NCBI GenBank assembly: GCA_963978055.1
Contig: CAXBQZ010000006.1
Location: 4,204-68,203, forward strand
Origin: an uncultured bacterium
GTDB taxonomy: Bacteria > Actinomycetota > Actinomycetes > S36-B12 > CAIYMF01
Direction: 5' to 3'
DNA: 64,000 nt
Under the pieces are notes generated by a model that was given only the letters and a program-made list of their open reading frames with translations, made no database searches and was not told where the DNA came from. The position numbers and the translations under genes were made by a program. Below are positions 670 to 24,534 of the stretch, piece by piece; within the stretch, counting starts at the first letter, position 1; every line of letters begins with the position of its first letter.

Positions 670-1392
670 ATGACGCGACCTGTGATCGGCATCTCCTGCT
701 ACAGCGAACCCTCAACCTGGGGCGCCTGGGCAGACACCGTTGCCGCGGTGATTCCCCGCCAGTACATCGATGCAGTGGAGTCCCAGGGAGGCGCTGCCAT
801 CCTGCTTCCGCCGGTGACGAATGCCGAGAGCGCCAGTGCCACGGTCGATCGCATCGACGGCCTCGTACTCGTCGGTGGTGCTGATATCAACCCGGCTGAT
901 TATGGCCAGGATGCGCATGACACCGTTGACAGGCCGCGCCTAGATCGCGATGCGACAGAGCGCGCCCTTTACCGTCACGCCCGAGCCATCGGCATCCCGG
1001 TCCTGGGCATCTGCCGCGGGTTGCAGATCATGGCGGTTGAATCCGGTGGAACGCTGATCCAGGATCTGCCCTCAGCCGGATACGGCGAGCTGCATCGGAT
1101 TCGTCCCGCCCACTTCCTCGAGCACGGCGCCCGATTCGAGCCAGGTTCACTGGTGGCCCGACTCATGGAGACGACCGAGACGGTCGTCAACTCCAGTCAT
1201 CATCAGGCCGTCGACAATCCGGGCAGCCTGACGATCACTGGCTGGGCGGAGGATGGCACTGTGGAGGTCTGCGAGGATCCCGAGGCAGCCTTCGTCCTTG
1301 GCGTGCAGTGGCATCCGGAGATGAGTGAGGATCGGCGACTGTTCGCTGGACTCATCCAGGCAGCGCGTCACAGAGCCGGGGACAGTTCCTGA
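670..1392 (+). CDS. Gamma-glutamyl-gamma-aminobutyrate hydrolase family (PuuD / peptidase C26, class I glutamine amidotransferase)
   Basis: MTRPVIGIS start, GGADINP, PVLGICRGLQ nucleophile Cys, VNSSHHQAV, GVQWHPE His-Glu. Start moved from 526 to ATG 670 because 526-624 is occupied by the MBL gene. Confidence 0.9.
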   Translation: MTRPVIGISCYSEPSTWGAWADTVAAVIPRQYIDAVESQGGAAILLPPVTNAESASATVDRIDGLVLVGGADINPADYGQDAHDTVDRPRLDRDATERALYRHARAIGIPVLGICRGLQIMAVESGGTLIQDLPSAGYGELHRIRPAHFLEHGARFEPGSLVARLMETTETVVNSSHHQAVDNPGSLTITGWAEDGTVEVCEDPEAAFVLGVQWHPEMSEDRRLFAGLIQAARHRAGDSS

Positions 1393-1395
1393 TCG

Positions 1396-2151
1396 CTAGG
1401 ACGATCGCGGTGGCAGGTAGATGGCTGTCTGCCGCGAGCTGGCCACCACTCGTCCCGATTCATCCCACACAACGGCGGTCTCATCCATGACGCCACTGTG
1501 CAGGTACTGACCGCGGACCCGTGAGGCCAGCCGTCCCACAATCTCACCCGGATAGAGAGCTACCTGAGCTGCAACAGTGGGGATCCCGCCAGGGATACCA
1601 AGACACCAGATTGTCGGTGGAAGCACATCCCAGGAAGCCATCGCCAGAAACTCGTCCACTGGTCGCCCGTCGCGGTAGCAGATCCAGCCGTTGATGACCG
1701 GATGTTCACTCGGTGGGCCTCCCCTGAGCGCGGCACCATCATGTGGCTTGAGACGTACGTTGAGGGTATCGAGCAGTTCCATCCCGGGGCCGGACCAGTT
1801 GGGACCCGCAGATGCACAGTCATCCCACCCCGGACCATCGAATGGTTCGAGATCATCGATATGAACGTCAGCGTCGCGTGGAGAACCGACTGTGACGATG
1901 AACTCCGCCACAGCGCTTCCCTCCCGGGACAGCGACAGGCGAGCGGTGGAAAGCCGTCCGTCTCGAAGACTGACGATCTCCAGGTCAGCGGGCCCACCAC
2001 CACGGGCGGCCGCCAAGTAATGCGCACTTACCGTAAGAGCCGGAGCACCGTTGAAGAACTCACTGGCTGCCTGGCCGGCCACAGCAGCCAAGTACCCGCC
2101 ATTGAGATGGCCGGTGATCGACCACCGTTCATCCAACTCAATGACGGGCAC
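1396..2151 (-). CDS. Thioesterase family protein (double hotdog, TesB-like)
   Basis: W..GHLNGGYLAA, SAHYL, DVLPP, G..DE...WD.SGRVVASSRQ pattern of double-hotdog thioesterases. Confidence 0.75.
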   Translation of the reverse strand: MPVIELDERWSITGHLNGGYLAAVAGQAASEFFNGAPALTVSAHYLAAARGGGPADLEIVSLRDGRLSTARLSLSREGSAVAEFIVTVGSPRDADVHIDDLEPFDGPGWDDCASAGPNWSGPGMELLDTLNVRLKPHDGAALRGGPPSEHPVINGWICYRDGRPVDEFLAMASWDVLPPTIWCLGIPGGIPTVAAQVALYPGEIVGRLASRVRGQYLHSGVMDETAVVWDESGRVVASSRQTAIYLPPRSS

Positions 2152-2198
2152 CTGTTGTTCCTGCTTTCAGTTGAACTGCTGTTCAGTCAAGCTGTTGT

Positions 2199-2966
2199 TC
2201 AGTCCAGCGGAGTGACGTACGCGCCCGAGATACCACCATCGACCAGGAAGTTGCTCGCGGTTATGAACGAGGCGTCATCACTTGCCAGGAACGCAACGGC
2301 TGCCGCGATCTCCGAGGCCTCGGCGAAACGACCGAACGGGATATGAACCAGGCGGCGGGCTGCACGCTCAGGATCCTTGGCAAAGAGTTCGATCAGGAGC
2401 GGGGTGTTGACCGGTCCAGGGGACAGGGCATTGACCCGGATGCCCTCGCGGGCAAACTGCACACCAAGTTCACGGCTCATCGCAAGGACACCACCCTTGG
2501 AGGCGGTGTACGAGATCTGCGAGGTGGCCGCACCCATCGTTGCGACGAACGACGCCGTATTGACGATCGCACCCTTGCCCTGACGCTGCATGTAGGGGAT
2601 GACCTCCTTGCAGCACAGGTACACGGACGTCAGGTTCACCCGCTGCACTCGATCCCAGGCCTCGATGCCCGTGGTCAGAATCGAATCGTCATCTGGGGGT
2701 GAGATTCCGGCGTTGTGGAAGGAGACATCGATCGAGCCGTAGTGATCGAAGGCCGTCTTGAACATGCGCGCCACATCGTCGGCATCAGTGACATCGGCCT
2801 TGACCGCAAGGCCCTTCACCTCAGCGGCAACAACCTCTGCTGCTTCCAGGTTCATGTCGACAACAACGACGTTGGCACCCTCGGAGGCAAGACGGTTCGC
2901 CGTCGCACGTCCAATGCCACTTCCTCCACCGGTGATGACGGCGGTGCGGTTGGTAAAGCGTTCCAC
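2199..2966 (-). CDS. Short-chain dehydrogenase/reductase (3-oxoacyl-ACP reductase-like; Rv2857c/SCO1611-type)
   Basis: TGGGSGIG, NAG, catalytic S...YTASK, PGPVNTP; 7 bp downstream of the aldehyde dehydrogenase. Confidence 0.9.
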   Translation of the reverse strand: MERFTNRTAVITGGGSGIGRATANRLASEGANVVVVDMNLEAAEVVAAEVKGLAVKADVTDADDVARMFKTAFDHYGSIDVSFHNAGISPPDDDSILTTGIEAWDRVQRVNLTSVYLCCKEVIPYMQRQGKGAIVNTASFVATMGAATSQISYTASKGGVLAMSRELGVQFAREGIRVNALSPGPVNTPLLIELFAKDPERAARRLVHIPFGRFAEASEIAAAVAFLASDDASFITASNFLVDGGISGAYVTPLD

Positions 2967-2973
2967 GATTTGA

Positions 2974-4341
2974 TCAGCCTTCCGTAGAGATGAATACGTT
3001 CTTGACTTCCGTGAACGCCTCGAGGGCGTCCGGACCTAGCTCCCGGCCGAGACCGGACTTCTTGAAACCGCCGAATGGCGTCCAGTAGCGGACCGAGGAG
3101 TGCGAATTGACCGACAGGTTGCCGGATTCGACGCCACGAGCCACCCGAATCGCGCGGCCGACATCACGAGTCCAAATCGAGCCGGAGAGCCCGAACTCAC
3201 TGTCGTTGGCCAGTGCAATCGCGTCTGCCTCGTCATCGAAGGGAACGACGGTGACAACCGGCCCGAAGATCTCTTCACGCAGAAGACGATCCTCACGTGA
3301 TTCAGCCAGAACCACAGTTGCCGGGTACCAGTACCCCGGCCCCTCGGGAACACTTCCGCGAATCAGCACATTGGTCTTGTCGTCAACGAAGGACGCCACG
3401 CGATCCCGGTGCCCTGCACTGATCAGCGGACCCATATCGGTGGTCGTGAGATTCGGATCATCGACGCGAACACCGAGTACCGCGGGCTCCAGCAGTTCGA
3501 GGAAGCGATCCATCACCGAGCGCTCGATCAGGATGCGCGAACGAGCGCAGCAGTCCTGACCGGAGTTGTCGAATACTCCGCCGGGGGCAGATGCCGCCGC
3601 TTTCTCGAGATCGGAATCAGCGAAGATGACGTTTGCGCTCTTGCCACCAAGTTCGAGAGTGACCGGCTTGACCTGACGAGCACATCCCTCGGCCACGTGG
3701 ATCCCAACCTCGGTGGAGCCGGTGAACACCACCTTGGCCACATCCGGATGAGTGACGAATCGCTCGCCGACCACCGAGCCACGCCCGGTGAGAATCTGCA
3801 GCACGTTCTCCGGGAAGCCCGCCTCGAGGGCGAGTTCTCCGATCCGCATCGCCGTCATGGGCGTGAGTTCTGCAGGCTTGACCACCACCGTGTTTCCAGC
3901 GGCCAATGCTGGAGCAACTCCCCAGCCCATGATCGGCATCGGGAAGTTCCACGGCACGATGACACCGACGACCCCGAGCGGCTCGCGGAACGTCATGTCG
4001 ATACCACCCGGCACCGGAATCTGGTGACCCAGCAGACGCTCGGGCGCTCCGGCGTAGTAATTGAAGACGTTGGCGATGTTGCCGGCTTCCCAGCGTGCAT
4101 TGCCGATCGTGTGGCCTGCGTTGAGCACCTCGAGCTGGGCCAACTCCTCGTTGTGCTCCTCAAGTAGGGCACCCAGGCGGCGCAGGAGTCGCGCTCGATC
4201 ACCTGGCGCGGTGTTGCGCCAGCTCACGAAGGCGACCTTGGCCCGAGCGATCGCGGCGTCAGTCTCCTCAAGTGAGATCGATGGAATGGTTGCAACGACA
4301 ACCTCGGTGGTGGGATTGATGACCTCGTGCACGGCAGTCAC
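2974..4341 (-). CDS. Aldehyde dehydrogenase (gamma-glutamyl-aminoaldehyde dehydrogenase-like)
   Basis: PWNFP, KPAELTP, FTGSTEVG, LELGGKS, GQDCCA catalytic Cys, EEIFGPV. Confidence 0.92.
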   Translation of the reverse strand: MTAVHEVINPTTEVVVATIPSISLEETDAAIARAKVAFVSWRNTAPGDRARLLRRLGALLEEHNEELAQLEVLNAGHTIGNARWEAGNIANVFNYYAGAPERLLGHQIPVPGGIDMTFREPLGVVGVIVPWNFPMPIMGWGVAPALAAGNTVVVKPAELTPMTAMRIGELALEAGFPENVLQILTGRGSVVGERFVTHPDVAKVVFTGSTEVGIHVAEGCARQVKPVTLELGGKSANVIFADSDLEKAAASAPGGVFDNSGQDCCARSRILIERSVMDRFLELLEPAVLGVRVDDPNLTTTDMGPLISAGHRDRVASFVDDKTNVLIRGSVPEGPGYWYPATVVLAESREDRLLREEIFGPVVTVVPFDDEADAIALANDSEFGLSGSIWTRDVGRAIRVARGVESGNLSVNSHSSVRYWTPFGGFKKSGLGRELGPDALEAFTEVKNVFISTEG

Positions 4342-4385
4342 AGATGCCTCTTTCAGGACGGATAGTTGATCGGTAGTTGGAAGGA

Positions 4386-5765
4386 TCAGAACCGCTCGAA
4401 GCTGCGATAGCGCTCCCAGTCGGTGACAGCTCGACCGAAGGCCTCGATTTCAATTCGGCCCATGTTTGCATAGTGCGCCTGCACGTCCTCACCAAAGGTC
4501 TGCGCTACCCATTCCGAACGCGACCACAGGTCTACTGCCTCCTGAAGCGTGTGCGGAACACGTGATCCGGTTGACTCATATGCGTTGCCCGTTGTCTCCG
4601 GACCAAGTTCGAGATTGCGCTGGATGCCGTCGAGTCCAGAGGCAACCATCGCGGCCACGACCAGGTACGGATTTACGTCACCACCGGGAACGCGGTTTTC
4701 CACTCGCAGACTTGCCCCGCGTCCGACCAGACGCAGTGAGCAGGTGCGGTTGTCACGCCCCCACTCAATCGCGGTCGGCGCGAATGAGCCAAGTGCAAAT
4801 CTCTTGTAGGAGTTGATGTTCGGGGCGAACAGGAGGGAGAGCTCGCGCATGTGTTCCAACTGCCCAGCGATGAACGACCGGCCAACTGCTGACAACCCAT
4901 GCTCCACATCGGACTCATCCGCGAACACCATGGAGCCATCCAGACCACGGAAACTGAGGTGCGTGTGGCAGGAGTTACCCTCTCGCTCATTCCACTTGGC
5001 CATGAAGGTGAGCGCATAACCCTCCTGTGCCGCGATCTCCTTGGCACCGGTCTTGTAGACCACGTGGTTGTCACAGGTGGTCAGGGCATCTGCGTACAGG
5101 AACGCAATCTCATGCTGACCGAAGTTGCACTCCCCCTTGGCACTCTCGACCACCATGCCGGCACCGGCCATATCGAGGCGGATCTTGCGCAGGAGGGGTT
5201 CGACCCGTGATGTGCCGATGATCGAGTAGTCAACGTTGTACTGGTTTGACGGGGTGAGATCGCGGTAGCCGCGTGACCAGGCATCCTCATACGTGTTGTT
5301 GAACAGGATGAACTCGAGTTCAGTTCCCACAAAGGCACCCATTCCGGCGTCGGCAAGTCGCGCCAACTGCTTCTTGAGGATCTGACGTGGGGATGCCACC
5401 ACCTCACGTCCGTCCAGCCAGTGGACGTCTGCCTGAACCATCACGGTGCCGGGATGCCATGGAACTCGACGCAGGGTGGCCAGGTCGTGGGCCATCACCA
5501 AATCGCCGTACCCGCTGTCCCAGCTGGACATGGCGTAGCCATCCACTGTGTTCATATCCACATCAACGGCGAGCAGATAATTGCACCCCTCGGTGCCGTG
5601 CGGAAGCACATGCTCAACGAAATATGGTGCGTGGACCCGCTTGCCCTGAAGTCGTCCCTGCATATCGGTGATCGCCACGATTACCGTGTCAACCGATCCA
5701 TCGGCAACAGCTGTCTTCAGCTGCTCCACCGACAGGAAACCACCGGAGGATGAGTGCTCACTCAT
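4386..5765 (-). CDS. glnA4: Glutamine synthetase-family gamma-glutamylase, GlnA4 type
   Basis: DMQGRLQGKR, GTEGCNYLLAVDVDM, GTELEF, KGECNFGQHEI, EGNSCHTHLS, ENRVPGGDVNPY; linked to ALDH, SDR and PuuD as in actinobacterial glnA4 loci. Confidence 0.8.
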   Translation of the reverse strand: MSEHSSSGGFLSVEQLKTAVADGSVDTVIVAITDMQGRLQGKRVHAPYFVEHVLPHGTEGCNYLLAVDVDMNTVDGYAMSSWDSGYGDLVMAHDLATLRRVPWHPGTVMVQADVHWLDGREVVASPRQILKKQLARLADAGMGAFVGTELEFILFNNTYEDAWSRGYRDLTPSNQYNVDYSIIGTSRVEPLLRKIRLDMAGAGMVVESAKGECNFGQHEIAFLYADALTTCDNHVVYKTGAKEIAAQEGYALTFMAKWNEREGNSCHTHLSFRGLDGSMVFADESDVEHGLSAVGRSFIAGQLEHMRELSLLFAPNINSYKRFALGSFAPTAIEWGRDNRTCSLRLVGRGASLRVENRVPGGDVNPYLVVAAMVASGLDGIQRNLELGPETTGNAYESTGSRVPHTLQEAVDLWSRSEWVAQTFGEDVQAHYANMGRIEIEAFGRAVTDWERYRSFERF

Positions 5766-5920
5766 GGGACCCCTTCACGTAGACATTGCGGTTCGTTGCA
5801 CAACCTACTCCCCTTGAGATCGGGTTGACCGGCGGGTCGCTGAGTCGGCCTGATACGGTCCAAAACACCACGATGAACCTCCACAGCCAGCCGATCAGCC
5901 AACGTACGAGGAGTGAGCAC

Positions 5921-8383
5921 ATGTCGGCCGACAGCGTTCAGAACTCACTGCCCACTCGGGCTCGAGCCGTTGTGATCGGTGGTGGAGTCGTCGGTGCGAG
6001 CGTCGCATATCACCTGACCAAGCTGGGCTTCACCGATCTCGTCCTGCTCGAGCAGGGACAGCTATCCTCCGGAACCACCTGGCACGCCGCCGGCCTGGTT
6101 GGACAGCTCCGAGCCTCGGAATCGGGCACTCGACTGGTGCAGTACTCAGCCAAGCTCTACGCGGAGCTGGAGGCCGAGACGGGTCTATCGACTGGCTATC
6201 GGCAGTGCGGCGGGGTCACCGTCGCTCGCACCCCCGAGCGGATGACCCAGCTCCTGCGAACGGCCGCACAGGCTGAGGCGTTCAACCTTGAGTGCGAGAT
6301 CCTGACTCCAGCGCAGGCCCTGGAGTACTACCCGATTCTGGAAGTCTCAGATCTGCAGGGTGCGATCTGGCTGCCGAAGGACGGGATCGCCAACCCGACG
6401 GACGTCACGCAGTCCCTCGCGCGTGGGGCGCGCATGGGTGGAGCTCAGATCTTCGAACGCACCAGAGTCACGGGCATCACCACAAAGGATGGAGCGGTCA
6501 CCGGAGTCGAGACCGATCATGGCTCCATCGAGGCCGAAATCGTCGTCAACTGTGGTGGCCAGTGGGCCAAGGCGATCGGCCAGCTTGCCGGGGTGAATGT
6601 TCCCCTGCACTCCGCTGAGCATTTCTACGTGGTGACCGAGCAGATCGACGGAGTCCATCGGATGATGCCGATCCTGCGCGATCCGGATGGATACACCTAC
6701 ATGAAGGAAGAGGTGGGTGGCCTAGTAGTCGGCGGATTCGAGCCGGTTGCCAAGCCCTGGGTCGCACCCGATGAGCTCCCCTACCCGTTTGAATTCCAGC
6801 TCCTCGAGGAAGATTGGGACCACTTCGAGATCCTGATGGAAAGTGCCCTTCATCGCGTCCCAGTACTAAACCAGACGGGTATCAAAAAGTTCTACAACGG
6901 CCCGGAGTCATTCACCCCGGACAACCAGTTCATCCTCGGTGAAGCACCTGAACTCCGAAACTTCTTCGTCGGTGCCGGCTTCAACTCCGTGGGCATTGCC
7001 TCCGCCGGTGGGGCGGGACGAGCACTCGCCGAGTGGATCGTGAGCGGTGAGCCGCAGACAGATCTCGTGGGCGTCGACATCCGTCGATTCGCGGCATTCA
7101 ACGGCAACAACCAGTGGCTGCGCGCTCGGGTGGGCGAAGTTCTCGGGCTGCACTACTCAGTTCCCTGGCCGAACCGCGAGTTCGACACCGCCCGCCCGTT
7201 CCGTCGTTCACCACTGCACGACCGGATGGTGCAGGCCAACGCCTGCTTCGGGTCGAAGATGGGCTGGGAGCGACCCAACTTCTTCGCCCCCGCCGGGGTT
7301 GAGCCGGTGATTGAGTACTCGTGGGGTAAGCAGAACTGGATCCCCTGGGTGGATGCAGAGCAGAGGGACGCCCGCTCTGAGGTGGCGATCTTCGATGAGA
7401 CCTCGTTTGGAAAACTGCTGGTCAAGGGGGCAGATGCCGAACGTCTGCTCCAGTGGTTGTGCACCGCAAATCTCGCCGTACCTGTTGGCACCGTTGTGTA
7501 CACAGGAGCACTAAACGCCCGCGGGACCTATGAGGCAGACGTCACGGTCACCCGGATCGCACACGATGAATTCCTGTGGGTTACCGGGTCGGCCTCCGTG
7601 GCCCGCGATGCCTCATGGATCAGCCGTCATCGCGAACCTGATATGCAGGTGGAGGTCGTCGACGTTTCGAGCTCATACGCGGTGATCGGGTTAATGGGAC
7701 CGAAGTCCCGCGACCTGCTCAGTTCACTGTCCCGCGCGGATCTATCCGATGAGGCCTTCCCATTCTCCACCTCACAGTTGATCGACGTCGGACCCTTCAC
7801 TGCCCGCGCTACTCGACTCACATACGTCGGTGAACTGGGATGGGAGCTTTACGTCCCAGCGGAGTTCGCAGTTGGTGTGTACGACCTGCTGAAGGGATCA
7901 GACATCGAGGTCCGAGATGCCGGCTACTACGCCATCAATGCTCTGCGACTCGAGAAGGGTTACCGGGCGTTCGGTCCTGAACTCAACCCCACCTACAACC
8001 CGATCGAGGCTGGGCTCGGCTTCACCTGCAAACTAAACACCGACGTCGACTTCCTCGGACGCGCGGCGGTTGAGCAGTCCAAGATCGACGGTGTGCGACG
8101 CCGCCTGGTCTCACTCGTCCTGGATTCCCCCGACCCGATGATGTGGGGTGGTGAACTGGTTCTGCGAGATGGAGTGGCAGTTGGCCAGGTCACCTCAGCA
8201 GCTTTTGCAACTACGACAAATGCGTGCGTGGCTCTCGCCTACATCTGGAACCCCGAGGGGGCTGTCGTTACAACGGACTTCCTCACCACCGGTTCCTACG
8301 TCATCAACATAGGCGGAGACCTCAATTCCGCCACCCTGCACCTGCGGGCGCCGTACGATCCCGACAACAGCCGGATCAAGTAG
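5921..8383 (+). CDS. GcvT-family FAD-dependent oxidoreductase (dimethylglycine/sarcosine dehydrogenase-like)
   Basis: IGGGVVG FAD motif, GTTWHAAG (His equivalent to the covalent-flavin residue), NGPESFTPD, C-terminal folate-binding GcvT domain (TYVGELGWELY, LRLEKGYR). ATG 5921 follows GAGGAG RBS. Confidence 0.9.
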   Translation: MSADSVQNSLPTRARAVVIGGGVVGASVAYHLTKLGFTDLVLLEQGQLSSGTTWHAAGLVGQLRASESGTRLVQYSAKLYAELEAETGLSTGYRQCGGVTVARTPERMTQLLRTAAQAEAFNLECEILTPAQALEYYPILEVSDLQGAIWLPKDGIANPTDVTQSLARGARMGGAQIFERTRVTGITTKDGAVTGVETDHGSIEAEIVVNCGGQWAKAIGQLAGVNVPLHSAEHFYVVTEQIDGVHRMMPILRDPDGYTYMKEEVGGLVVGGFEPVAKPWVAPDELPYPFEFQLLEEDWDHFEILMESALHRVPVLNQTGIKKFYNGPESFTPDNQFILGEAPELRNFFVGAGFNSVGIASAGGAGRALAEWIVSGEPQTDLVGVDIRRFAAFNGNNQWLRARVGEVLGLHYSVPWPNREFDTARPFRRSPLHDRMVQANACFGSKMGWERPNFFAPAGVEPVIEYSWGKQNWIPWVDAEQRDARSEVAIFDETSFGKLLVKGADAERLLQWLCTANLAVPVGTVVYTGALNARGTYEADVTVTRIAHDEFLWVTGSASVARDASWISRHREPDMQVEVVDVSSSYAVIGLMGPKSRDLLSSLSRADLSDEAFPFSTSQLIDVGPFTARATRLTYVGELGWELYVPAEFAVGVYDLLKGSDIEVRDAGYYAINALRLEKGYRAFGPELNPTYNPIEAGLGFTCKLNTDVDFLGRAAVEQSKIDGVRRRLVSLVLDSPDPMMWGGELVLRDGVAVGQVTSAAFATTTNACVALAYIWNPEGAVVTTDFLTTGSYVINIGGDLNSATLHLRAPYDPDNSRIK

Positions 8384-8395
8384 AGCGGAGTCAGC

Positions 8396-9304
8396 ATGAT
8401 CGACGAGCAACTGCTGGTCCGACTCGACAGTGTGGATGCCCTACGCGAGCGAACCTGCGTCGAGGAACTGTCCGGCGGGCTGACAAATCTCAACCTCAAG
8501 GTCACCACTCCCACGGGTACCTACGTGGCTCGACTCTCATCGGAACAGAGCTCACTACTGGCGATCGACCGGGCTGCCGAGCACAGCAACAGTCGGGCAG
8601 CAGCCGAGTCCGGAGCAGCGCCCGCAGTTCTGGCATACGTCCCCGAGCAGAGCCTGCTGGTTGTCGAGTACGTCAATGGTCGTACGTGGACCGAGCGCGA
8701 TGTACTCGATCCGGTCAATGCCCTTCGCATTGGCGCGGCCTGCCGAAAACTGCATGCTGGACCACGGTTCGTCAACGAGTTCAACATGCTTGCGTTGCAG
8801 CCGCACTACCTATCGATCGTTCAACAGCGTGGATTTCGTCTACCCGACCGATACCTGGACTTCGCTGAGCAGACCCACGCTATCGCCGACGCCCTCGCCG
8901 TCCAGTCGGTGGCAACTGTGCCCTGCAACAACGACCTTCTCGCAGCGAACTTCATCGACACCGGCGAGCACCTCTGGCTGATCGACTACGAGTACTCCGG
9001 GAACAACGACCCGTTCTTCGAGATCGGCAACATCTGGAGTGAGGCCACGGGCAATCCTGACGACCTCGAACGCCTGGTGTCGGCATATGTCGGACGCACG
9101 TCCGCGTCACTGACCGCCCGGGCCCGCCTGTGGGGTCTGATGAGCAAGTACGGCTGGATGCTGTGGGCATCGATCCAGGACGGCAGCAGTGACCTCGACT
9201 TTGATTTCTGGTCATGGGGCTTGGAGAAATACGACCGGGCAGTCACCGAATTCGACAGTCCCGAGTTCGGTACCTGGCTGGAAAGCGCCAAGAGTCCCCA
9301 TTGA
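8396..9304 (+). CDS. Choline/ethanolamine kinase-family phosphotransferase
   Basis: LSGGLTNLN, Brenner-like motif PCNNDLLAAN, LIDYEYSG..DPFFEIGN; 12 bp after the GcvT-family gene. Confidence 0.8.
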   Translation: MIDEQLLVRLDSVDALRERTCVEELSGGLTNLNLKVTTPTGTYVARLSSEQSSLLAIDRAAEHSNSRAAAESGAAPAVLAYVPEQSLLVVEYVNGRTWTERDVLDPVNALRIGAACRKLHAGPRFVNEFNMLALQPHYLSIVQQRGFRLPDRYLDFAEQTHAIADALAVQSVATVPCNNDLLAANFIDTGEHLWLIDYEYSGNNDPFFEIGNIWSEATGNPDDLERLVSAYVGRTSASLTARARLWGLMSKYGWMLWASIQDGSSDLDFDFWSWGLEKYDRAVTEFDSPEFGTWLESAKSPH

Positions 9305-9496
9305 TGTCGATTGAATTCGCAGATCAATGACCTGCTGACGGAAAATCCCCACTGAAAACCCTCCCCAAAGGGCCTCGGGGCTTGTAAGTTGCTTCAGCGT
9401 GTCGTCAACGGGCCACCTGCTCGGGCCGACACACTTTTCAACAAGAAGCAGCGCCGCTGCATCTGCCCTGTATGGGGTTCCCGGAGGAGGGGACAC

Positions 9497-11143
9497 GTGA
9501 CTGATATTTCTAAGCTCGATGACGATGAACGTCGGCTCGCCGAACTTGGCTACAAGCAGGAACTGAGTCGTTCCTGGTCAGGTTTCTCGAACTTTGCCAT
9601 CTCGTTCTCGATCATCTCGATTCTGGCCGGCTGTTTCACCACCTTTGGTGTGGGCTGGAACAACGGTGGCCCCGCCGGCATTGCCTGGGGCTGGCCGATC
9701 ATTGCTGCGCTGATCCTGATCATCGGCTTCTGCATGTCAGAACTGGTATCTGCCTTCCCGACCTCCGGTGGTATCTACTGGTGGGCGAGCAAGCTCGGTG
9801 GAGCCAAGGCTGGCTACTACACGGGTTGGCTGAACCTGATCGGCCTTCTGGCCATCGTGGCATCCGTGGCCTACGGTGCAGCCACCTTCCTCGACATCAC
9901 GCTCTCGGACTTCAGTGCCGACTGGGCAGCCGGATATTCCCTCAACCGAGTCTTCATCATGTTCGTCGGCGTCCTACTGGTCGCCGGTGCCATCAATATC
10001 TTCTCGAGCCAGCTGCTCGCCCTCGTGAATAACGTCTCGGTGTGGTGGCACGTCTTCGGCTCGATCATCGTGATCGCCATCCTGATCTTCGGTCCGAAGA
10101 GCCACCTGAGCATCGATCAAGTGTTCGGCACCTGGATCAATAACACCGGCTTCGGAGATCCGAACAACCCCACGAGCGGTATTCCGTTCTTCTTCTTCGT
10201 CATTCCGCTGGGCTTCATTCTCACCCAGTACACCATCACGGGTTATGACGCATCGGCCCACCTCGCGGAGGAGACCCACGGGGCCTCAGATGCCGCTGCC
10301 AAGGGCATCTGGCGCTCCATCCTCTACTCAGCAATCGGTGGTTGGATCCTGCTCCTGTCGTTCCTGTTTGCAGTTCAGGACATCCCGGCAGTCACCAAGG
10401 GTGGCGGCTTCTCATTCGTCATCTTCAACCAGGCTCTCAGCCCCAACCTCGCGGGAACGGTTCTCCTGATCTCCTCTCTCGGACAGCTGTTCTGCACAGT
10501 GGCATGTATGACCAGTGCAACCCGCATGCTCTACGCATTCAGCCGTGATGGTGCCGTACCGGGTGCGTCCCTGTGGGCACGCCTGTCCCCAACCAAGGTG
10601 CCAGTCAACGGTGTGATCCTGACGGTGATCGTCTCCCTCATCATCACTGCTCCGGCGCTGATCCAGGTTGACGTCAACGGAGTGCCCACCCCCGTTGCCT
10701 TCTACGCTGTCGTGACGATCGGTGTTATCGGTCTGTACCTCGCCTTCGCCATCCCGATCTTCCTGCGCTGGAAAGCTGGAGACAACTTCAAGGCCGGCAG
10801 CTGGACACTTGGAAACAAGTACAAGTGGATGGCTCCGGTGGCCCTGATTGAGATCGCCGTGACGTCGTTCATGGCGCTGATGCCCGGCTCACCTCTGGCG
10901 ATCCCGTGGGGCAGCCAGTTCGGTGGCTGGCAGTTCGTCAACTACACCCCGATCGTCGTCGGCATCGCCCTAATCGGGCTCTGGCTGTTCTGGAACCTTT
11001 CTGCCAAGAACTGGTTCACCGGCCCGAAGCACACAATCGATCTGCCCGACAACATCTCATCTGCCGATGAGCTTTACCTCGAGCATCACGAGCATGGTTT
11101 CCTCGACCACAAGGCCGGGGAGCACGAGGCTCCGTCTGAGTAA
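9497..11143 (+). CDS. APC-superfamily amino acid/amine permease (GABA/choline permease-like)
   Basis: ELGYKQELSR, FAISFSIISILAG, GGPAGIAWGW, GYDASAHLAEET, RMLYAFSRDG; about 12 hydrophobic segments. GTG 9497 follows GGAGGAGG RBS. Confidence 0.9.
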   Translation: MTDISKLDDDERRLAELGYKQELSRSWSGFSNFAISFSIISILAGCFTTFGVGWNNGGPAGIAWGWPIIAALILIIGFCMSELVSAFPTSGGIYWWASKLGGAKAGYYTGWLNLIGLLAIVASVAYGAATFLDITLSDFSADWAAGYSLNRVFIMFVGVLLVAGAINIFSSQLLALVNNVSVWWHVFGSIIVIAILIFGPKSHLSIDQVFGTWINNTGFGDPNNPTSGIPFFFFVIPLGFILTQYTITGYDASAHLAEETHGASDAAAKGIWRSILYSAIGGWILLLSFLFAVQDIPAVTKGGGFSFVIFNQALSPNLAGTVLLISSLGQLFCTVACMTSATRMLYAFSRDGAVPGASLWARLSPTKVPVNGVILTVIVSLIITAPALIQVDVNGVPTPVAFYAVVTIGVIGLYLAFAIPIFLRWKAGDNFKAGSWTLGNKYKWMAPVALIEIAVTSFMALMPGSPLAIPWGSQFGGWQFVNYTPIVVGIALIGLWLFWNLSAKNWFTGPKHTIDLPDNISSADELYLEHHEHGFLDHKAGEHEAPSE

Positions 11144-11226: not shown

Positions 11227-12153
11227 CTAGAGGTCAGCGGCAATCAGCGATCTCCAGGCATCCGCCACAAGTACCGGGTGCTCGATCTGCGCCACATGAC
11301 CTGCCTCTGGTATGACGAGCACCCGAACATCGGGGAATGCCTTCGTGTGCGCGTGAATCGAATCGACAAGCTTGTCGCGACGCCCGTAGATAAGCAGCGT
11401 TGGCACGTCAATCCCCTCCGCCAGCTTCCATGGACGCGTGGGCGACCGATCCAGATAGGTCGCCAACAACCCCCGCAGTGATTGCAGAAACGCGTCACCG
11501 GCATACGGCAACTGATCGCGACGTCGCACTTCCTCAACTGCTTGATCCATCCGCTCCGGTGGGACGGAATTCGGATCCGCAAAGCAAACGTCGACCGTAG
11601 CCCGCGCTCGCATTGCGGGATCCAGGGCCAGATAACGCCGATAGAGACTCATCCCGACTCCCGGTGTGGCGATCACCGGAAGATGGGCATTCGATCGACG
11701 CACGCCGATCTTCGGGAGTGCCGGACTGACAAGGGTCAGGGTACGAACAAGATCCACATGGCGTGCGGCCAACTGCAGGGCAACCGCACCACCCATGCTG
11801 TTGCCGAAAACATGTGCCGGTCGACCGTCGAATCTCGTCGCAATAAGTTCTGCGATCGTCTCAGCCGAACGGATCGGCGAGTAGTCACCGTCACGTGGTG
11901 GTGGTGACCAGCCATGACCGGGAAGATCAACAGCTACCCCATCACAATCGTCGCGCAGGAGCGCCATAAGGTCGGTCCAGTTCGTAGAACTACCGCCAAG
12001 TCCGTGGATGAAGACTGTCGGTTCCGCACTCTCAGCCATTGGGGCGGCAACCCGGATCGACAGTGTGCCGTTACTGAGTACCACTTCTTCACGAGGCCAC
12101 GGCTGTGGCAGATCGGCCAACAGTTCTTCAGTGGTGCGAGGATTGGTGGACAT
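11227..12153 (-). CDS. Alpha/beta-fold hydrolase
   Basis: FIHGLGG, DLPGHG, GNSMGG nucleophile elbow, GRRDKLV, AGHVAQIE. Confidence 0.9.
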   Translation of the reverse strand: MSTNPRTTEELLADLPQPWPREEVVLSNGTLSIRVAAPMAESAEPTVFIHGLGGSSTNWTDLMALLRDDCDGVAVDLPGHGWSPPPRDGDYSPIRSAETIAELIATRFDGRPAHVFGNSMGGAVALQLAARHVDLVRTLTLVSPALPKIGVRRSNAHLPVIATPGVGMSLYRRYLALDPAMRARATVDVCFADPNSVPPERMDQAVEEVRRRDQLPYAGDAFLQSLRGLLATYLDRSPTRPWKLAEGIDVPTLLIYGRRDKLVDSIHAHTKAFPDVRVLVIPEAGHVAQIEHPVLVADAWRSLIAADL

Positions 12154-12187: not shown

Positions 12188-13102
12188 TCAGGTGCCCAGT
12201 TGCTCTGACAGTCGCCGGTTCACCGCATCAAGCGTGGCCCTGATGACCGCCTGACGGACGTCATCACGAACCTCCGATGCCCCCGTCAGCCTCTCGGCTG
12301 CCCCACCCGGAAAACGAACCACCTGAACCACCGCAACCCGCTGGTCACTCACGTTGGTGATCACGACTGCTTCAAGATCCAGACGCTCACGGTTATCAAT
12401 CGCGTTGGCGACCGCAGCCAGAGTGGCCTCCGCGACGGATCTGTTGACCCCTGCCGATGTGGACGAACCCTCAGCAGTGCCCACAAACTCGACATCTCCA
12501 TACGACAGACAGACCGATGCACGCATTCCCAATCCGTCAGCTGCAAGGGTCAGATGCGCAATGGCCAGTCTGGCCTGCTGATCAACCTCGGTCACGGGAT
12601 TGTTGGAGGGGACGAACACCCTCCCACCAGAAGGATGACGAGAGGCTGCGGTGACCACCTCCTCATGAAAGTCGTGTGATCCATGACCGAACTGTCCGAG
12701 GAACGAGGCGATATCACCTTCGAGTGGGATTACGGTGTTTCCGAAATCCCGCTCACTGATGACGCCATCCTCCGAATTCTGAACGACGGCTAGGCGCGGA
12801 GTCGGTGGTCTCATGGACGTTGCTGGCGGCGAGATCGGCGTGGAGGTCGTGGAGACCTCCAATGAACCTTCATCGAGTGCCAAGCCGAACTGCATCCGCA
12901 AGATTCGATTGACCGACGATGCAACGAGCAACTCGTCTGCATCGGAGTCCAGAACCAGCCGAACCAGATCACGTGCTGAGGTCGTCGACAGCGTGCCGTC
13001 ATTGGCGTTGACTGACACCTGCGCAACTCCGGGAACAACCGATAGGGCTGCCTCAACATCTGCACATGCGTACCGGCGCGTCGCCCCATCGGATCCACTC
13101 AT
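12188..13102 (-). CDS. Hypothetical protein (small N-terminal domain, Pro/Thr linker, bipartite C-terminal domain)
   Basis: Long ORF with coding-like GC3. Likely start ATG 13102 (MSGSDG) after TACCGT -10 and GGAGG. Confidence 0.7.
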   Translation of the reverse strand: MSGSDGATRRYACADVEAALSVVPGVAQVSVNANDGTLSTTSARDLVRLVLDSDADELLVASSVNRILRMQFGLALDEGSLEVSTTSTPISPPATSMRPPTPRLAVVQNSEDGVISERDFGNTVIPLEGDIASFLGQFGHGSHDFHEEVVTAASRHPSGGRVFVPSNNPVTEVDQQARLAIAHLTLAADGLGMRASVCLSYGDVEFVGTAEGSSTSAGVNRSVAEATLAAVANAIDNRERLDLEAVVITNVSDQRVAVVQVVRFPGGAAERLTGASEVRDDVRQAVIRATLDAVNRRLSEQLGT

Positions 13103-13248
13103 GGCCTCCACGGTAGGAGAGGCTGCTGGATCGTTGCGCGGTGAAACCCGCCGAAGATGGACAAGAAACATCAAATTTGGCGCACACCACCCAGGTGGGT
13201 GAACCTCGCGATCATCGGACCGAACCTACTGGCGAGTAGTATCGCCAT

Positions 13249-21990: not shown

Positions 21991-24441
21991 CTAGCCACGA
22001 ACTCGAGTGCGGTCCGGATCATAGAAGGGGCGAATGGAGAGGGTGGCCGGATACGTTCGTCCGGCGATACTCACGGTGAAGCCACCCTCAGCCAACCAAT
22101 CTGCCGTGACCCCGGGCGCCCACTCGATAGTTGCCAGACCAACTGAGCCCCCGAGAGTGTGGCCATATGCTCCGGCCAGAACATAGCCGATCCAGACTCC
22201 GTCTCGATGGACAGGTTCGGCACCCCACAGGAGTGGGTCGGGATCATCAACCAGAATGGAAACGATTCGACTGGTCTTGTCCGCGCGCTGCGCTATCAGT
22301 GCGGACTTGCCACGGAACTCGGTCGGCTTATCCCAGGCAACGGCAAAGGCGAGTCCAGCCGTCACCGGGGTATCGGTGTTCTCGATATCCACTGCAAAGT
22401 CGCGGTAACCCTTTTCGAGTCTCAGTGAGTTCATCGCTGATAATCCCACCGGCCGGAGTCCGAGATCGACCCCGGCCCCCTCCATCGTCTCCCAGACCGA
22501 CACTGCCTGATCGGAAGGGACGTACAGCTCATATCCACACTCACCCACATACGTCACATGAAGTGCCAGGAGTCGCGAGTAGCCGATCTCGACGTAGCGG
22601 GCAGTCAGATAGGGAAATGCATTTTCCGACAGATCATCCGGGCTGACTCGACTCAGCAGTTCACGTGATGCTGGTCCCTGTACGGTGAGCAGTGCATAGC
22701 CTGCAGTGACATCGGTGATAACCGCGAACTCATCCTCATGGACCTCATCGCGAAACATCTTCTCCACCCTTCGGTGTGAGATGTCCGAAACCACGAGCAG
22801 GAACTCCGCCTCGTCCAGCCTTGTCACCGTGAGATCCGCTTCTATCCCGCCCACGTCGTTGAGCCACTGTGTGTAGACAACTCGACCGATATCTCCGGAC
22901 ACATCATTGGCACTCAGACGATCGAGCACGTGTGCTGCATGTGGGCCTTGGACAATGAACTTTGACATCAGCGTCATATCGATGACGCCGACTCGTTCGC
23001 GCACCGCTCGATGCTCGTCCTCCACCCATGCACGATGCTCCCCGAACCCCCAGCCGTGCGGCTCCTGCGGAACAACGCCAGTTGGTGAGAACCACTCCGG
23101 GAACTCCCAGCCGTGTGAACAACCAAACTTGGCACCGTTGGCGGCCCAAACATCATGTAGCGGTGAGCGACGGATATTCCTCGCGGTCTTGTTCTGGAAG
23201 TTGGGAAAGCCACCATCTCCCATCAGGACACCCAACTGCTCGACGGTTCGTTCCGTCCGGAATCTCTGGGTGTTCTCGAAAGGGAATGCGCGCGCCACGT
23301 GATAGGCGGCCATATCGACAGGTGCGACCCCGTCGACGATCCAGGACGCCAGGGCGCTGCCAAGTCCGCCACCGGTGAGAATGCCGACGGAATTTAGTCC
23401 GGCCGCTGCCCACATCCCGTCGAGCTCGGGGACAGGTCCCACCATCGGCATGACGTCATGGGTAAAACTCTCCGGACCGCAGAAGAACGTACGGATCCCC
23501 GCGGTTGCAAGGGTCGGCACTCGCTCCATCGCATCGTTGAGGAATGGCGTGACTCTCTCGTAGTCGGGCGGGATCGTGCCGAAGGCGAAGTCCATTGGGG
23601 CACCCTCTGGATGCCAGGCCTTTCCCACAGGCTCGAATAATCCGACCAGCAGGCCACCACCTTCCTCGCGCAAGTATCCATAGGAGCCAGGATCTTCAAC
23701 GATCGGAAGGTCGCGATGAACTCCGTCCATCGGCTCGGTGAGCAGGTAGTAGTGCTCGGCGGCCTGCAGAGGGATATCAACTCCGGCAGCTCGTGCCAGC
23801 TGTCGGCTCCACAGCCCTGCTGCGATCACAACGTGTTCACACTCGATCTCACCCTGATCGGTGACCACCCCGGTGACTCGTCGGCCCGAGGTGACAAAGC
23901 CGGTCACGGTGACACCTTCGACGATCGATGCACCGCCCTGCTTTGCCCCCTTGGCCAGAGAGGTGGCAACCCCCACGGGATCAGCGCGACCCTCATCTGG
24001 GACGTACGAGGCGCCGAGTACGTCAGCTGTCTTCATCAGCGGCCAGAGAGTGGCAACCTCGGCTGCAGAGATCAGCTCATTGGGAACTCCATAGCCGATC
24101 TGGAAATCCCGCTCGCGGATGATGCTCTCCAGATGCGGCTGATCACATGCGATGTGCAGATGCCCGACGGGCCGAAACCCGGTTGAATGGCCGGTCTCCT
24201 CTTCGAGCCGGGCATAGAGATCGCGGGAATAGCGAGACATCCACAGTGAGGTCTCAGTGTGATAGCCCATGCTGGTGATCAGGCCTGCCGCATGCCATGT
24301 GGTGCCTGCGGTCAGTTGATGCTTCTCGAGGACCACGACATCGGTAACACCCAGTTTGGTCAGGTGATAGGCAGTTGAGCAGCCGATCACTCCACCACCG
24401 ACGATGACCACACGTGCCCTGCTGGGGATCTGGTCAACCAT
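21991..24441 (-). CDS. Second GcvT-family FAD-dependent oxidoreductase (DMG/sarcosine dehydrogenase-like)
   Basis: VGGGVIG, GTTWHAAG, CGPESFT, TYVGECGYELY, LRLEKGYR. Start ATG 24441 (alternative TTG 24456). Confidence 0.9.
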   Translation of the reverse strand: MVDQIPSRARVVIVGGGVIGCSTAYHLTKLGVTDVVVLEKHQLTAGTTWHAAGLITSMGYHTETSLWMSRYSRDLYARLEEETGHSTGFRPVGHLHIACDQPHLESIIRERDFQIGYGVPNELISAAEVATLWPLMKTADVLGASYVPDEGRADPVGVATSLAKGAKQGGASIVEGVTVTGFVTSGRRVTGVVTDQGEIECEHVVIAAGLWSRQLARAAGVDIPLQAAEHYYLLTEPMDGVHRDLPIVEDPGSYGYLREEGGGLLVGLFEPVGKAWHPEGAPMDFAFGTIPPDYERVTPFLNDAMERVPTLATAGIRTFFCGPESFTHDVMPMVGPVPELDGMWAAAGLNSVGILTGGGLGSALASWIVDGVAPVDMAAYHVARAFPFENTQRFRTERTVEQLGVLMGDGGFPNFQNKTARNIRRSPLHDVWAANGAKFGCSHGWEFPEWFSPTGVVPQEPHGWGFGEHRAWVEDEHRAVRERVGVIDMTLMSKFIVQGPHAAHVLDRLSANDVSGDIGRVVYTQWLNDVGGIEADLTVTRLDEAEFLLVVSDISHRRVEKMFRDEVHEDEFAVITDVTAGYALLTVQGPASRELLSRVSPDDLSENAFPYLTARYVEIGYSRLLALHVTYVGECGYELYVPSDQAVSVWETMEGAGVDLGLRPVGLSAMNSLRLEKGYRDFAVDIENTDTPVTAGLAFAVAWDKPTEFRGKSALIAQRADKTSRIVSILVDDPDPLLWGAEPVHRDGVWIGYVLAGAYGHTLGGSVGLATIEWAPGVTADWLAEGGFTVSIAGRTYPATLSIRPFYDPDRTRVRG

Positions 24442-24534
24442 GGTCCACCCATTCAACGAGAGTTGACTATCATTCGATAGGCAACCCTAGCAATCCGCCG
24501 AGCTGCTCGGAAGCATTTCCGGCGATCACCGTTG

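Follow-up and report, generated by a model that had tools for sequence, protein, structure and literature searches.

In Streptomyces, work on GlnA4 has defined the conserved cluster SCO1610-1615, which encodes a membrane protein, a short-chain dehydrogenase (SDR), an aldehyde dehydrogenase (ALDH), glnA4, a regulator, a putative ethanolamine permease and a glutamine-amidotransferase-like hydrolase. The route proposed there leads from ethanolamine through gamma-glutamylethanolamide, the aldehyde and gamma-glutamylglycine to glycine. In Phaeobacter, the same enzyme set (MED193_10026-10056) is induced on phosphatidylethanolamine, and the action of this type of cluster on ethanolamine has been demonstrated both genetically and biochemically. 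A different system has been described in Eubacterium limosum. The LicA-like kinase MthK, encoded beside demethylase genes, phosphorylates choline (Jiang et al. 2025, PMC12155760), and MthB of the MttB family demethylates phosphocholine, not choline (PMC12155760). The authors argued that the phosphate supplies the acidic group that other members of the MttB family find in a carboxylate (PMC12155760). MthK moves the phosphate from the product, dimethylaminoethanol phosphate, to a new choline (PMC12155760). Here we analysed a gene island at positions 670-11143 of a DNA stretch of 64,000 nucleotides from an uncultured bacterium of the Actinomycetota (contig CAXBQZ010000006.1; the whole stretch is called the window). 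The island contains a GlnA4-type cluster together with the genes for a kinase of the choline/ethanolamine-kinase family and for a flavoprotein of the dimethylglycine dehydrogenase (DMGDH) family fused to a GcvT region. The preliminary description of this DNA put the whole island forward as a candidate for an undescribed one. It turned out that the GlnA4 arm and the APC permease are the published ethanolamine cluster, and that the kinase-flavoprotein pair is a conserved unit and the only part of the island that is new.

To place the pair, we scanned one genome per species and obtained 80 loci encoding relatives of the kinase, onto which the proteins of the window were mapped. Neighbourhood genes were called by codon-position GC scoring and tblastn mapping. 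The counts given here refer to the 48 loci from other species in which the kinase gene has 8 kb or more of flank on either side, and neighbours were counted up to 10 kb from it. A full-length DAO+GcvT flavoprotein is encoded near the kinase in 44 of the 48 loci. GlnA4-like ligases and APC permeases are each found in 30/48, a GntR/UTRA regulator in 26/48 and a hydrolase of the HAD-IA family in 11/48. The flavoprotein of the window defines type A, whose members are 67-88% identical to it, and type B is about 42% identical to type A. At stricter identity thresholds, type A is found in 12/48 loci and type B in 30/48, with both together in none; at least four of the remaining six loci carry a fragmented or partial flavoprotein gene. 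The same exclusion was seen in 21 whole genomes, since those with type A have no type B and vice versa, and a search of the rest of the genome from which the window comes found no type B.

In the nearest Nanopelagicales-type relatives, type B sits at the same locus between the permease/regulator and an alpha/beta hydrolase, and in the lineage of the window type A stands directly upstream of the kinase instead. This exchange of one paralogue for the other at a single site argues that types A and B do the same job here. The lineage of the window has lost the regulator, and in it the kinase is still directly coupled to the flavoprotein. A third type of flavoprotein, about 41% identical to both A and B, is found on Roseobacter plasmids (Salipiger, Ruegeria), where it is encoded directly upstream of a homologous kinase (29-33% identical to that of the window) and behind a DeoR regulator. 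On the Salipiger plasmid pPABY1, a Tdm-like DUF1989+GcvT protein (L082:2313-4679) lies with an ABC transporter just upstream of the flavoprotein-kinase pair. Three apparent fusions of kinase and DAO domains in the 50% representative library (P0135, P0206 and P0260) contain out-of-frame stretches, so we regard them as frameshift artefacts, produced when gene calling read through a kinase gene and the type-A flavoprotein gene beside it, and not as real fusions. The literature search returned no description of the kinase-flavoprotein pair or of a route of phosphorylation, demethylation and GlnA4.

The loci fall into two architectures. The flavoprotein is combined with GlnA4 and no HAD hydrolase in 27/48 loci, and with a HAD hydrolase and no GlnA4 in 10/48. 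The second architecture consists of kinase, HAD hydrolase, flavoprotein and GntR/UTRA regulator with other transporters, and it has neither ALDH nor GlnA4. In it, the flavoprotein is the sole enzyme that could act after the kinase and before the phosphatase, which is our chief reason for proposing a phospho-ester as its substrate. Motif I of the linked HAD protein reads FDFNGTL in the four copies that were read (L016:11761-12480, L029:10891-11556, L047:13770-14414 and L055:8166-8900), where Asn replaces the usual second Asp, the general acid/base of HAD phosphatases. The regulator, a membrane protein of the DMT family and the HAD protein had their best or weak NCBIfam matches in phosphonate-type models (PhnF/PhnR, phn_DUF6 and PhnX-like), all under the cut-off. 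A link to phosphonates was dropped, because the kinase would have no role in a phosphonate route.

We build on the gene content, the conserved linkage, the conserved catalytic residues and the transcription in situ. From these we propose that N-methylethanolamines are O-phosphorylated, demethylated onto tetrahydrofolate (THF) and passed to the GlnA4 route, a proposal for which we see the balance of probability as even. The APC permease would bring in N-methyl- and/or N,N-dimethyl-ethanolamine. The kinase would then phosphorylate the hydroxyl of the N-methylated ethanolamine, and the flavoprotein would oxidise the N-methyl group or groups of the phospho-ester, passing the one-carbon unit to THF and leaving phosphoethanolamine. 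In other lineages, the phosphate would probably be removed by the dedicated HAD phosphatase. In this bacterium, it could be done by an unlinked phosphatase or, by analogy with MthK, by the kinase acting as a phosphotransferase from product to substrate. If the kinase handed phosphate from phosphoethanolamine to N-methylethanolamine, the GlnA4 architecture would need no phosphatase. The known cluster would then convert ethanolamine through gamma-glutamylethanolamide, gamma-glutamyl-aminoacetaldehyde and gamma-glutamylglycine to glycine and glutamate. The identity of the substrate, the order of kinase before demethylase and the mode of phosphate removal are what we infer. Chemically, O-phosphorylation would stop the free beta-hydroxyl from cyclising onto the iminium to an oxazolidine. 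Flavin amine oxidation proceeds by hydride transfer supported by the nitrogen lone pair. Choline is therefore an unlikely substrate of the flavoprotein on chemical grounds, because its quaternary nitrogen has no lone pair for hydride transfer. A more specific version of the proposal is tentative, and we would sooner expect it to fail than to hold: the kinase-linked clade of the DMGDH family may be specific for O-phospho-N-methyl- and O-phospho-N,N-dimethyl-ethanolamine and not for carboxylates, with the kinase installing an anionic handle, the phosphate keeping the hydroxyl from forming the oxazolidine and, in architectures that have no phosphatase, the kinase recycling the phosphate.

The flavoprotein gene (5921-8383, forward strand) starts at an ATG at 5921 behind GAGGAG and encodes 820 aa. 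Its domains DAO, FAO_M, GCV_T and GCV_T_C all score above the gathering thresholds and follow the order of the DMGDH family. The protein scores 496 bits against human DMGDH (hDMGDH) and 359 bits against the dimethylglycine oxidase of Arthrobacter globiformis (AgDMGO). The His that binds FAD covalently (8-alpha-N-histidyl) and the dyad His225/Tyr259 (DMGO numbering) are kept, as the segments SGTTWHAAGL, EHFY and YTYMKE align, and Asp552 of the folate site (DMGO numbering) is kept in 61 of 62 sequences. The flavoprotein has Ala where the oxidase has Pro. This site may be the gatekeeper of the hDMGDH paper, which describes the gatekeeper position with no residue numbers and names no substrate-binding residues. 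If it is the gatekeeper site, the alignment suggests that the flavoprotein is a dehydrogenase linked to electron-transfer flavoprotein (ETF) rather than an oxidase.

The genome (3.0 Mb, 95% complete) encodes five full-length DAO+GcvT flavoproteins and at least 10 glutamine synthetase-like (GS-like) genes. The DMGDH-like paralogue at C19:30157-34143 adjoins a gene of the MttB superfamily, and at C95:665-3999 a GMC oxidoreductase adjoins a second MttB gene. The DMGO-like paralogue at C37:1365-8012 is followed, judged by eye, by apparent ETF beta, ETF alpha and formate-THF ligase (Fhs). The C19, C95 and C37 loci look like ordinary steps of choline, betaine, dimethylglycine and sarcosine conversion. 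A further flavoprotein (C48:5859-14423) lies beside hutH- and hutI-like genes, as read by eye from the translations, and the window itself holds a second full-length DAO+GcvT flavoprotein (21997-24444, reverse strand), about 42% identical to that of the island and with no adjoining kinase. We built a FastTree tree of 62 sequences, of which 56 were kinase-linked enzymes and six were non-linked comparators. One clade of the tree unites types A and B with the Roseobacter type; it also holds two kinase-less paralogues of this genome, those at C48 and at window 21997-24444. The hDMGDH groups with the C19 paralogue and AgDMGO with the C37 paralogue. Since the places of DMGDH and DMGO are taken by these two, the enzyme of the island is unlikely to be the dimethylglycine dehydrogenase of this bacterium. 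Earlier it had been asked whether the flavoprotein is a plain dimethylglycine or sarcosine enzyme; the tree and the gene contexts argue against the plain dimethylglycine enzyme, as other paralogues, in betaine and ETF contexts, are the nearest to DMGDH and DMGO.

At ten alignment positions, the 56 kinase-linked enzymes are at least 93% invariant and all six comparators differ from them; in DMGO numbering, these are 54, 56, 57, 114, 124, 271, 343, 363, 507 and 687. They include the Gly, Leu and Arg of the motif H-A/S-A-G-L-V-G-Q-L-R just after the covalent His, and the flavoprotein of the island carries GLVGQLR together with the other clade-specific residues of this signature. One signature residue is a Phe at DMGO position 343, where 6/6 comparators have Pro. 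Another adjoins DMGO His364, and this His is itself missing from every kinase-linked type. The two nested kinase-less paralogues also lack the ten signature residues.

These data bear on the explanation in which oxidation comes first. N-methylated ethanolamines would be converted to sarcosine or dimethylglycine by alcohol and aldehyde dehydrogenases, or as gamma-glutamyl derivatives by GlnA4, SDR, ALDH and the C26 hydrolase. The flavoprotein would then be an ordinary enzyme and the kinase an accessory. We consider this explanation unlikely. It does agree with the full set of DMGDH/DMGO catalytic features and with the score to hDMGDH. It would use all the island enzymes except the kinase, the motif QLR is perhaps SARDH-like (SARDH being sarcosine dehydrogenase), and a GbsB-like Fe-dependent alcohol dehydrogenase or another ALDH stands beside the pair in three loci (L016, L033 and L054). 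However, the strongest linkage, that of kinase and flavoprotein in 44/48 loci and two phyla, is left unexplained by it, and so is the architecture of kinase, HAD hydrolase and flavoprotein with neither ALDH nor GlnA4. Better-placed dimethylglycine and sarcosine enzymes are encoded elsewhere in the genome, and the same-clade paralogues that stand without a kinase are those without the signature.

The kinase gene (8396-9304, forward strand) starts 12 nt after the stop of the flavoprotein gene and encodes 302 aa. It matches PF01633 with 72.3 bits against a cut-off of 29 bits; the nearest curated model is GntI, under its cut-off. The score is 126 bits to the structure 3dxq and 52 bits to LicA. The segments CNNDLLAAN and LIDYEYSGNNDPFFE...E align to LicA 172-213 and cover the Brenner and choline-kinase motifs. 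The key residues are taken from the published structures of LicA of Streptococcus pneumoniae with choline (4R77/4R78). The catalytic Asp176, Asn181, Asp194 and Glu196 (LicA numbering) are kept in 76/76 kinase orthologues, as are Tyr197, Trp251 and Trp254 of the choline box. Glu213 is kept in 75/76, and position 268 is Trp or Tyr in 73/76; taken together, the catalytic residues and the aromatic box are kept in 70-76 of the 76 orthologues. In the kinase of the island, the box (LicA Tyr197, Trp251, Trp254, Tyr268 and Glu213) reads Y, W, W, W and E. Such a box suits a small amino alcohol whose ammonium group is methylated, and the enzyme is predicted to be an N-methyl-ethanolamine kinase. The amino-alcohol class of substrate put forward in the preliminary description is thus consistent with the choline-type box.

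Another N-methylated hydroxy-amine could nevertheless be the substrate, such as N-methyl-aminopropanol, homocholine-type amines or N-methylated derivatives of serinol or serine, with the GlnA4 arm taking the released primary amino alcohol. The low score to LicA and the GntI match under cut-off leave room for this. GS-like ligases of this type take several primary amines, and the many GS-like and GcvT-flavoprotein paralogues imply a broad use of amines. We nevertheless consider this distinctly unlikely, as the choline box of LicA is fully conserved, the partner cluster has been shown to act on ethanolamine and the related Agrobacterium kinase module adjoins the ethanolamine ammonia-lyase EutBC.

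It is also conceivable that the kinase is not a pathway enzyme at all. Its product, phosphoethanolamine or phosphocholine, would then serve as an inducer for the regulator or decorate the envelope or lipids, and nothing but a regulon for scavenging amine nitrogen would connect the flavoprotein with the GlnA4 arm. The linked regulators are of the GntR/UTRA family in Actinomycetota and of the DeoR family in Alphaproteobacteria, phosphorylated compounds are frequent ligands of such families, and kinases of the LicA type decorate envelopes in other bacteria. However, we found no cytidylyltransferase or LicD-type gene in the island or in the clustering of the 80 neighbourhoods, which is not an exhaustive annotation. 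In the lineage of the window the regulator was lost and the kinase is still coupled to the flavoprotein, and the recurrent phosphatase beside the pair points to a transient phospho-intermediate. We regard this explanation as very improbable.

Both arms were expected to be conserved together if they belong to one system, and loss of co-conservation had been set beforehand as the refuting test. Co-conservation held: among the kinase loci, 44/48 have the flavoprotein and 30/48 the GlnA4 arm. With varying gene order, the linkage extends over Nanopelagicales-like metagenome-assembled genomes (MAGs), Nakamurella, Pseudonocardia, Acidimicrobiales and others. Nakamurella has kinase-permease-GlnA4-ALDH-SDR-C26 on a single strand, and Pseudonocardia has kinase-GlnA4-C26-SDR. 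Since the order is rearranged between lineages, inherited synteny alone is no explanation for the association. That the two arms are unrelated neighbouring operons, as their divergent transcription and the uninformative synteny of close relatives would allow, is already contradicted by these distant lineages with two flavoprotein types, and its probability is negligible.

The left arm, the C26 gene and the permease are a member of the known gamma-glutamyl ethanolamine cluster, as judged from their sequences. The GlnA4-like ligase (4386-5765, reverse strand; PF00120, 324 bits) has its best solved structures in 11zs (394 bits) and 5dm3 (390 bits). The entry 5dm3 is deposited as 'L-glutamine synthetase', and we take it to be the enzyme of Chromohalobacter salexigens. 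The glutamylation route of C. salexigens is cited in the Streptomyces GlnA4 paper. The ligase is 60-95% identical in the kinase loci of other species and is predicted to be a gamma-glutamylethanolamide synthetase. The SDR (2199-2966, reverse strand) matches NF004713 with 466 bits, above the cut-off of 404, and is 72-97% identical in related loci. It is the predicted gamma-glutamyl-ethanolamide dehydrogenase and the counterpart of the short-chain dehydrogenase of SCO1610-1615. The ALDH (2974-4341, reverse strand; PF00171, 519 bits) has as its best NCBIfam models aminobutyraldehyde and betaine-aldehyde dehydrogenase, both under cut-off. Its predicted role is that of a gamma-glutamyl-aminoacetaldehyde dehydrogenase, and its counterpart is SCO1612. 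The C26/class-I amidotransferase-like hydrolase (670-1392, forward strand; ATG at 670; PF07722, 199 bits) occurs together with the GlnA4 arm in 29/48 kinase loci. It is a putative gamma-glutamyl-glycine hydrolase, the counterpart of SCO1615, which would catalyse the final step of the ethanolamine route.

The permease (9498-11143, forward strand) has its probable start at a GTG at 9498 behind GGAGGAGG, in a reading frame open from 9389. It matches PF13520 with 154 bits and TIGR00907 with 281 bits, the latter under its cut-off. At 40% identity or more, this permease was found in 25/30 loci with GlnA4 versus 5/18 without. The permease therefore co-travels with the GlnA4 arm and belongs to the known module; in the Streptomyces clusters, too, a permease occupies this place. 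We predict that it imports ethanolamine and N-methylethanolamine. The gene at 1396-2151 (reverse strand) encodes an acyl-CoA thioesterase II-like protein (4HBT_3; PF20789 and PF13622). It is syntenic in close relatives only, in 9/48 loci, and its membership in the island is doubtful.

The open reading frame (ORF) listing and the profile searches agree with the preliminary layout, in which flavoprotein, kinase and permease diverge from glnA4. The start of the flavoprotein at 5921 leaves a control region of exactly the 155 bp given there (5766-5920) between glnA4 and the flavoprotein gene. Within it, the element GCACAACCTAC (5798-5808) is invariant in the two closest relatives (L003 and L004) amid diverged flanks, and it may serve as an operator or promoter element. 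Scans of the control regions for promoters, terminators and palindromes were uninformative, with no sigma-70 consensus match and no inverted repeat in the divergent region. On the other side of the island, an ORF of 328 aa (12188-13174, reverse strand) has no Pfam or NCBIfam match and is syntenic in relatives with the alpha/beta hydrolase at 11227-12153. This ORF is probably outside the island.

DNA of the window was detected in freshwater and aquatic metagenomes. In two freshwater metatranscriptomes, we found short RNA contigs 95-100% identical to the genes for C26, SDR, ALDH, GlnA4, flavoprotein, kinase and permease. One of them (8182-8517) spans the flavoprotein-kinase junction. Thus, both arms are transcribed in nature, and the data are compatible with co-transcription of flavoprotein and kinase.

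The closest relatives of the kinase are found in Nanopelagicales-like and other Actinomycetes MAGs and in Longivirga. Its distribution is patchy: a homologue was found at E<=1e-40 in 22/401 evenly sampled Actinomycetota genomes, and one of at least 48% identity in just 3/401, including this genome. Two homologues lie 3-6 kb apart in five genomes of one Actinomycetota family (G164, G190, G294, G307 and G396), which suggests duplicated kinase-demethylase pairs. A different module with a kinase homologue of about 29% identity occurs on plasmids of Alphaproteobacteria, in the Rhizobiaceae and in Acidisoma (Acetobacteraceae): L084 (pAtCG920), L085 (pRi2659), L086 (Shinella pShin-03) and L087 (Acidisoma). 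The module contains an ABC importer, a DeoR regulator, a carbamoylase-like Zn hydrolase, an APH phosphotransferase and the kinase, with a HisN-like phosphatase in 3/4. On pAtCG920, it is followed by EutBC. As a loose analogy, a kinase is here again found with a phosphatase near genes of ethanolamine breakdown. In the genome of the window itself, C36:15365-19035 contains, judged by eye, a GntR/UTRA regulator, an SDR, an APH-family kinase and two proteins like shell proteins of bacterial microcompartments. This locus resembles an RMM-type microcompartment and would be a second, separate kinase system of the aminopropanol type. No phospho-lyase dependent on pyridoxal phosphate (PLP), as in the RMM microcompartment/EtnppL route, was found in the island by profile search, and none turned up in the clustering of the 80 neighbourhoods, which was not an exhaustive annotation.

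Several points weigh against phosphorylation followed by demethylation. The island has no gene for the removal of the phosphate, which is where the model is weakest. The HAD hydrolase and GlnA4 occur together in 1/48 loci (Fisher p 6e-5, not corrected for phylogeny), and such near-exclusion means that the chain of kinase, demethylase, phosphatase and GlnA4 is almost never encoded together. An orthologue of the HAD hydrolase was found neither in this genome nor in 17 others of the GlnA4-type architecture. The other co-occurrence counts also carry no correction for phylogeny. The aromatic box of the kinase would equally fit choline, which the flavoprotein should be unable to oxidise. The ten signature residues mark a functional subgroup, and as they come from an alignment we claim no contact with substrate or phosphate for them. 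The GQLR signature may simply be a trait of sarcosine dehydrogenases; mammalian SARDH presumably has WQLR at the same place. The RNA contigs are of low depth and come from related strains; they are silent on induction, and carry-over of DNA is possible.

To our knowledge, no aerobic bacterial route for N-methyl- and N,N-dimethyl-ethanolamine has been described. Methylated ethanolamines are head groups of intermediates of phosphatidylcholine synthesis, and N-methylated ethanolamines are bulk industrial amines. In addition, the anaerobic demethylation of choline ends in N,N-dimethylethanolamine (PMC12155760). If our proposal is true, phospho-esters would be a new class of substrates for a textbook family of enzymes, and many proteins annotated as 'thiamine kinase-like' and 'FAD-dependent oxidoreductase' would find an explanation. 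In marine Roseobacters and in the abundant Actinomycetota of fresh water, turnover of membrane-lipid head groups would be linked to the folate pool of one-carbon units. If the more specific version also holds, recycling of phosphate by the kinase would mean that aerobic N-demethylation costs no net ATP and that ethanolamine is set free straight into the gamma-glutamyl route. Two protecting-group strategies would then be combined, O-phosphorylation for N-demethylation and N-glutamylation for alcohol oxidation. The pair is accessible, as it consists of two soluble enzymes with substrates that can be purchased or easily made, and several of its carriers are cultured, namely Longivirga aurantiaca CGMCC 4.7317, Nakamurella silvestris DSM 102309, Pseudonocardia alaniniphila and Tamaricihabitans halophyticus DSM 45765.

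The island can be compared with four known systems. With the DMGDH, DMGO and SARDH enzymes (5L46, human; 4PAA, rat; 1PJ5, A. globiformis), the flavoprotein shares the four domains, the His of covalent FAD, the dyad and Asp552. It differs in that it belongs to a separate clade, has no His at DMGO position 364 and carries ten residues specific for kinase-linked enzymes. A kinase gene is always beside the flavoprotein of the window type, which is not so for the characterised enzymes. With LicA and 3DXQ, a structural-genomics protein of unassigned function, the kinase shares the Brenner and choline-kinase motifs, the catalytic Asp and the aromatic box with Glu213. It differs from LicA in the low score, in having CNND instead of CHND in the Brenner motif, in the lack of licB, licC and licD partners and in its catabolic context. 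Like SCO1610-1615 and the C. salexigens and Phaeobacter clusters, the window has a GS-like ligase, an SDR, an ALDH, a C26-type hydrolase and a permease. The published gene lists of the Streptomyces and Phaeobacter clusters contain neither a kinase nor a GcvT-fused flavoprotein, whereas in the window these two are inserted between glnA4 and the permease.

The fourth system, MthK with MthB, MthC and MthA, is a mechanistic precedent. The preliminary description knew of no characterised pathway joining a kinase, a GcvT-family demethylase and GlnA4; our literature search likewise returned none, and the Mth system is the nearest precedent. Both have a LicA-like kinase next to a demethylase, and in both, for the window by proposal, a phospho-ester is demethylated and the methyl goes to THF. 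No MttB or corrinoid protein was found within window positions 1-13 kb by profile search; in this genome, the two MttB genes lie elsewhere, on C95 and C19. The Mth system uses corrinoid-dependent methyl transfer of the MttB superfamily from a quaternary amine and is anaerobic and redox-neutral, whereas the system of the window would use FAD-dependent oxidative demethylation of secondary or tertiary amines. The island would work like the Mth system and is not a member of it, and if the proposal is true, it would be an aerobic, flavin-based counterpart of the cobalamin-dependent MthK/MthB.

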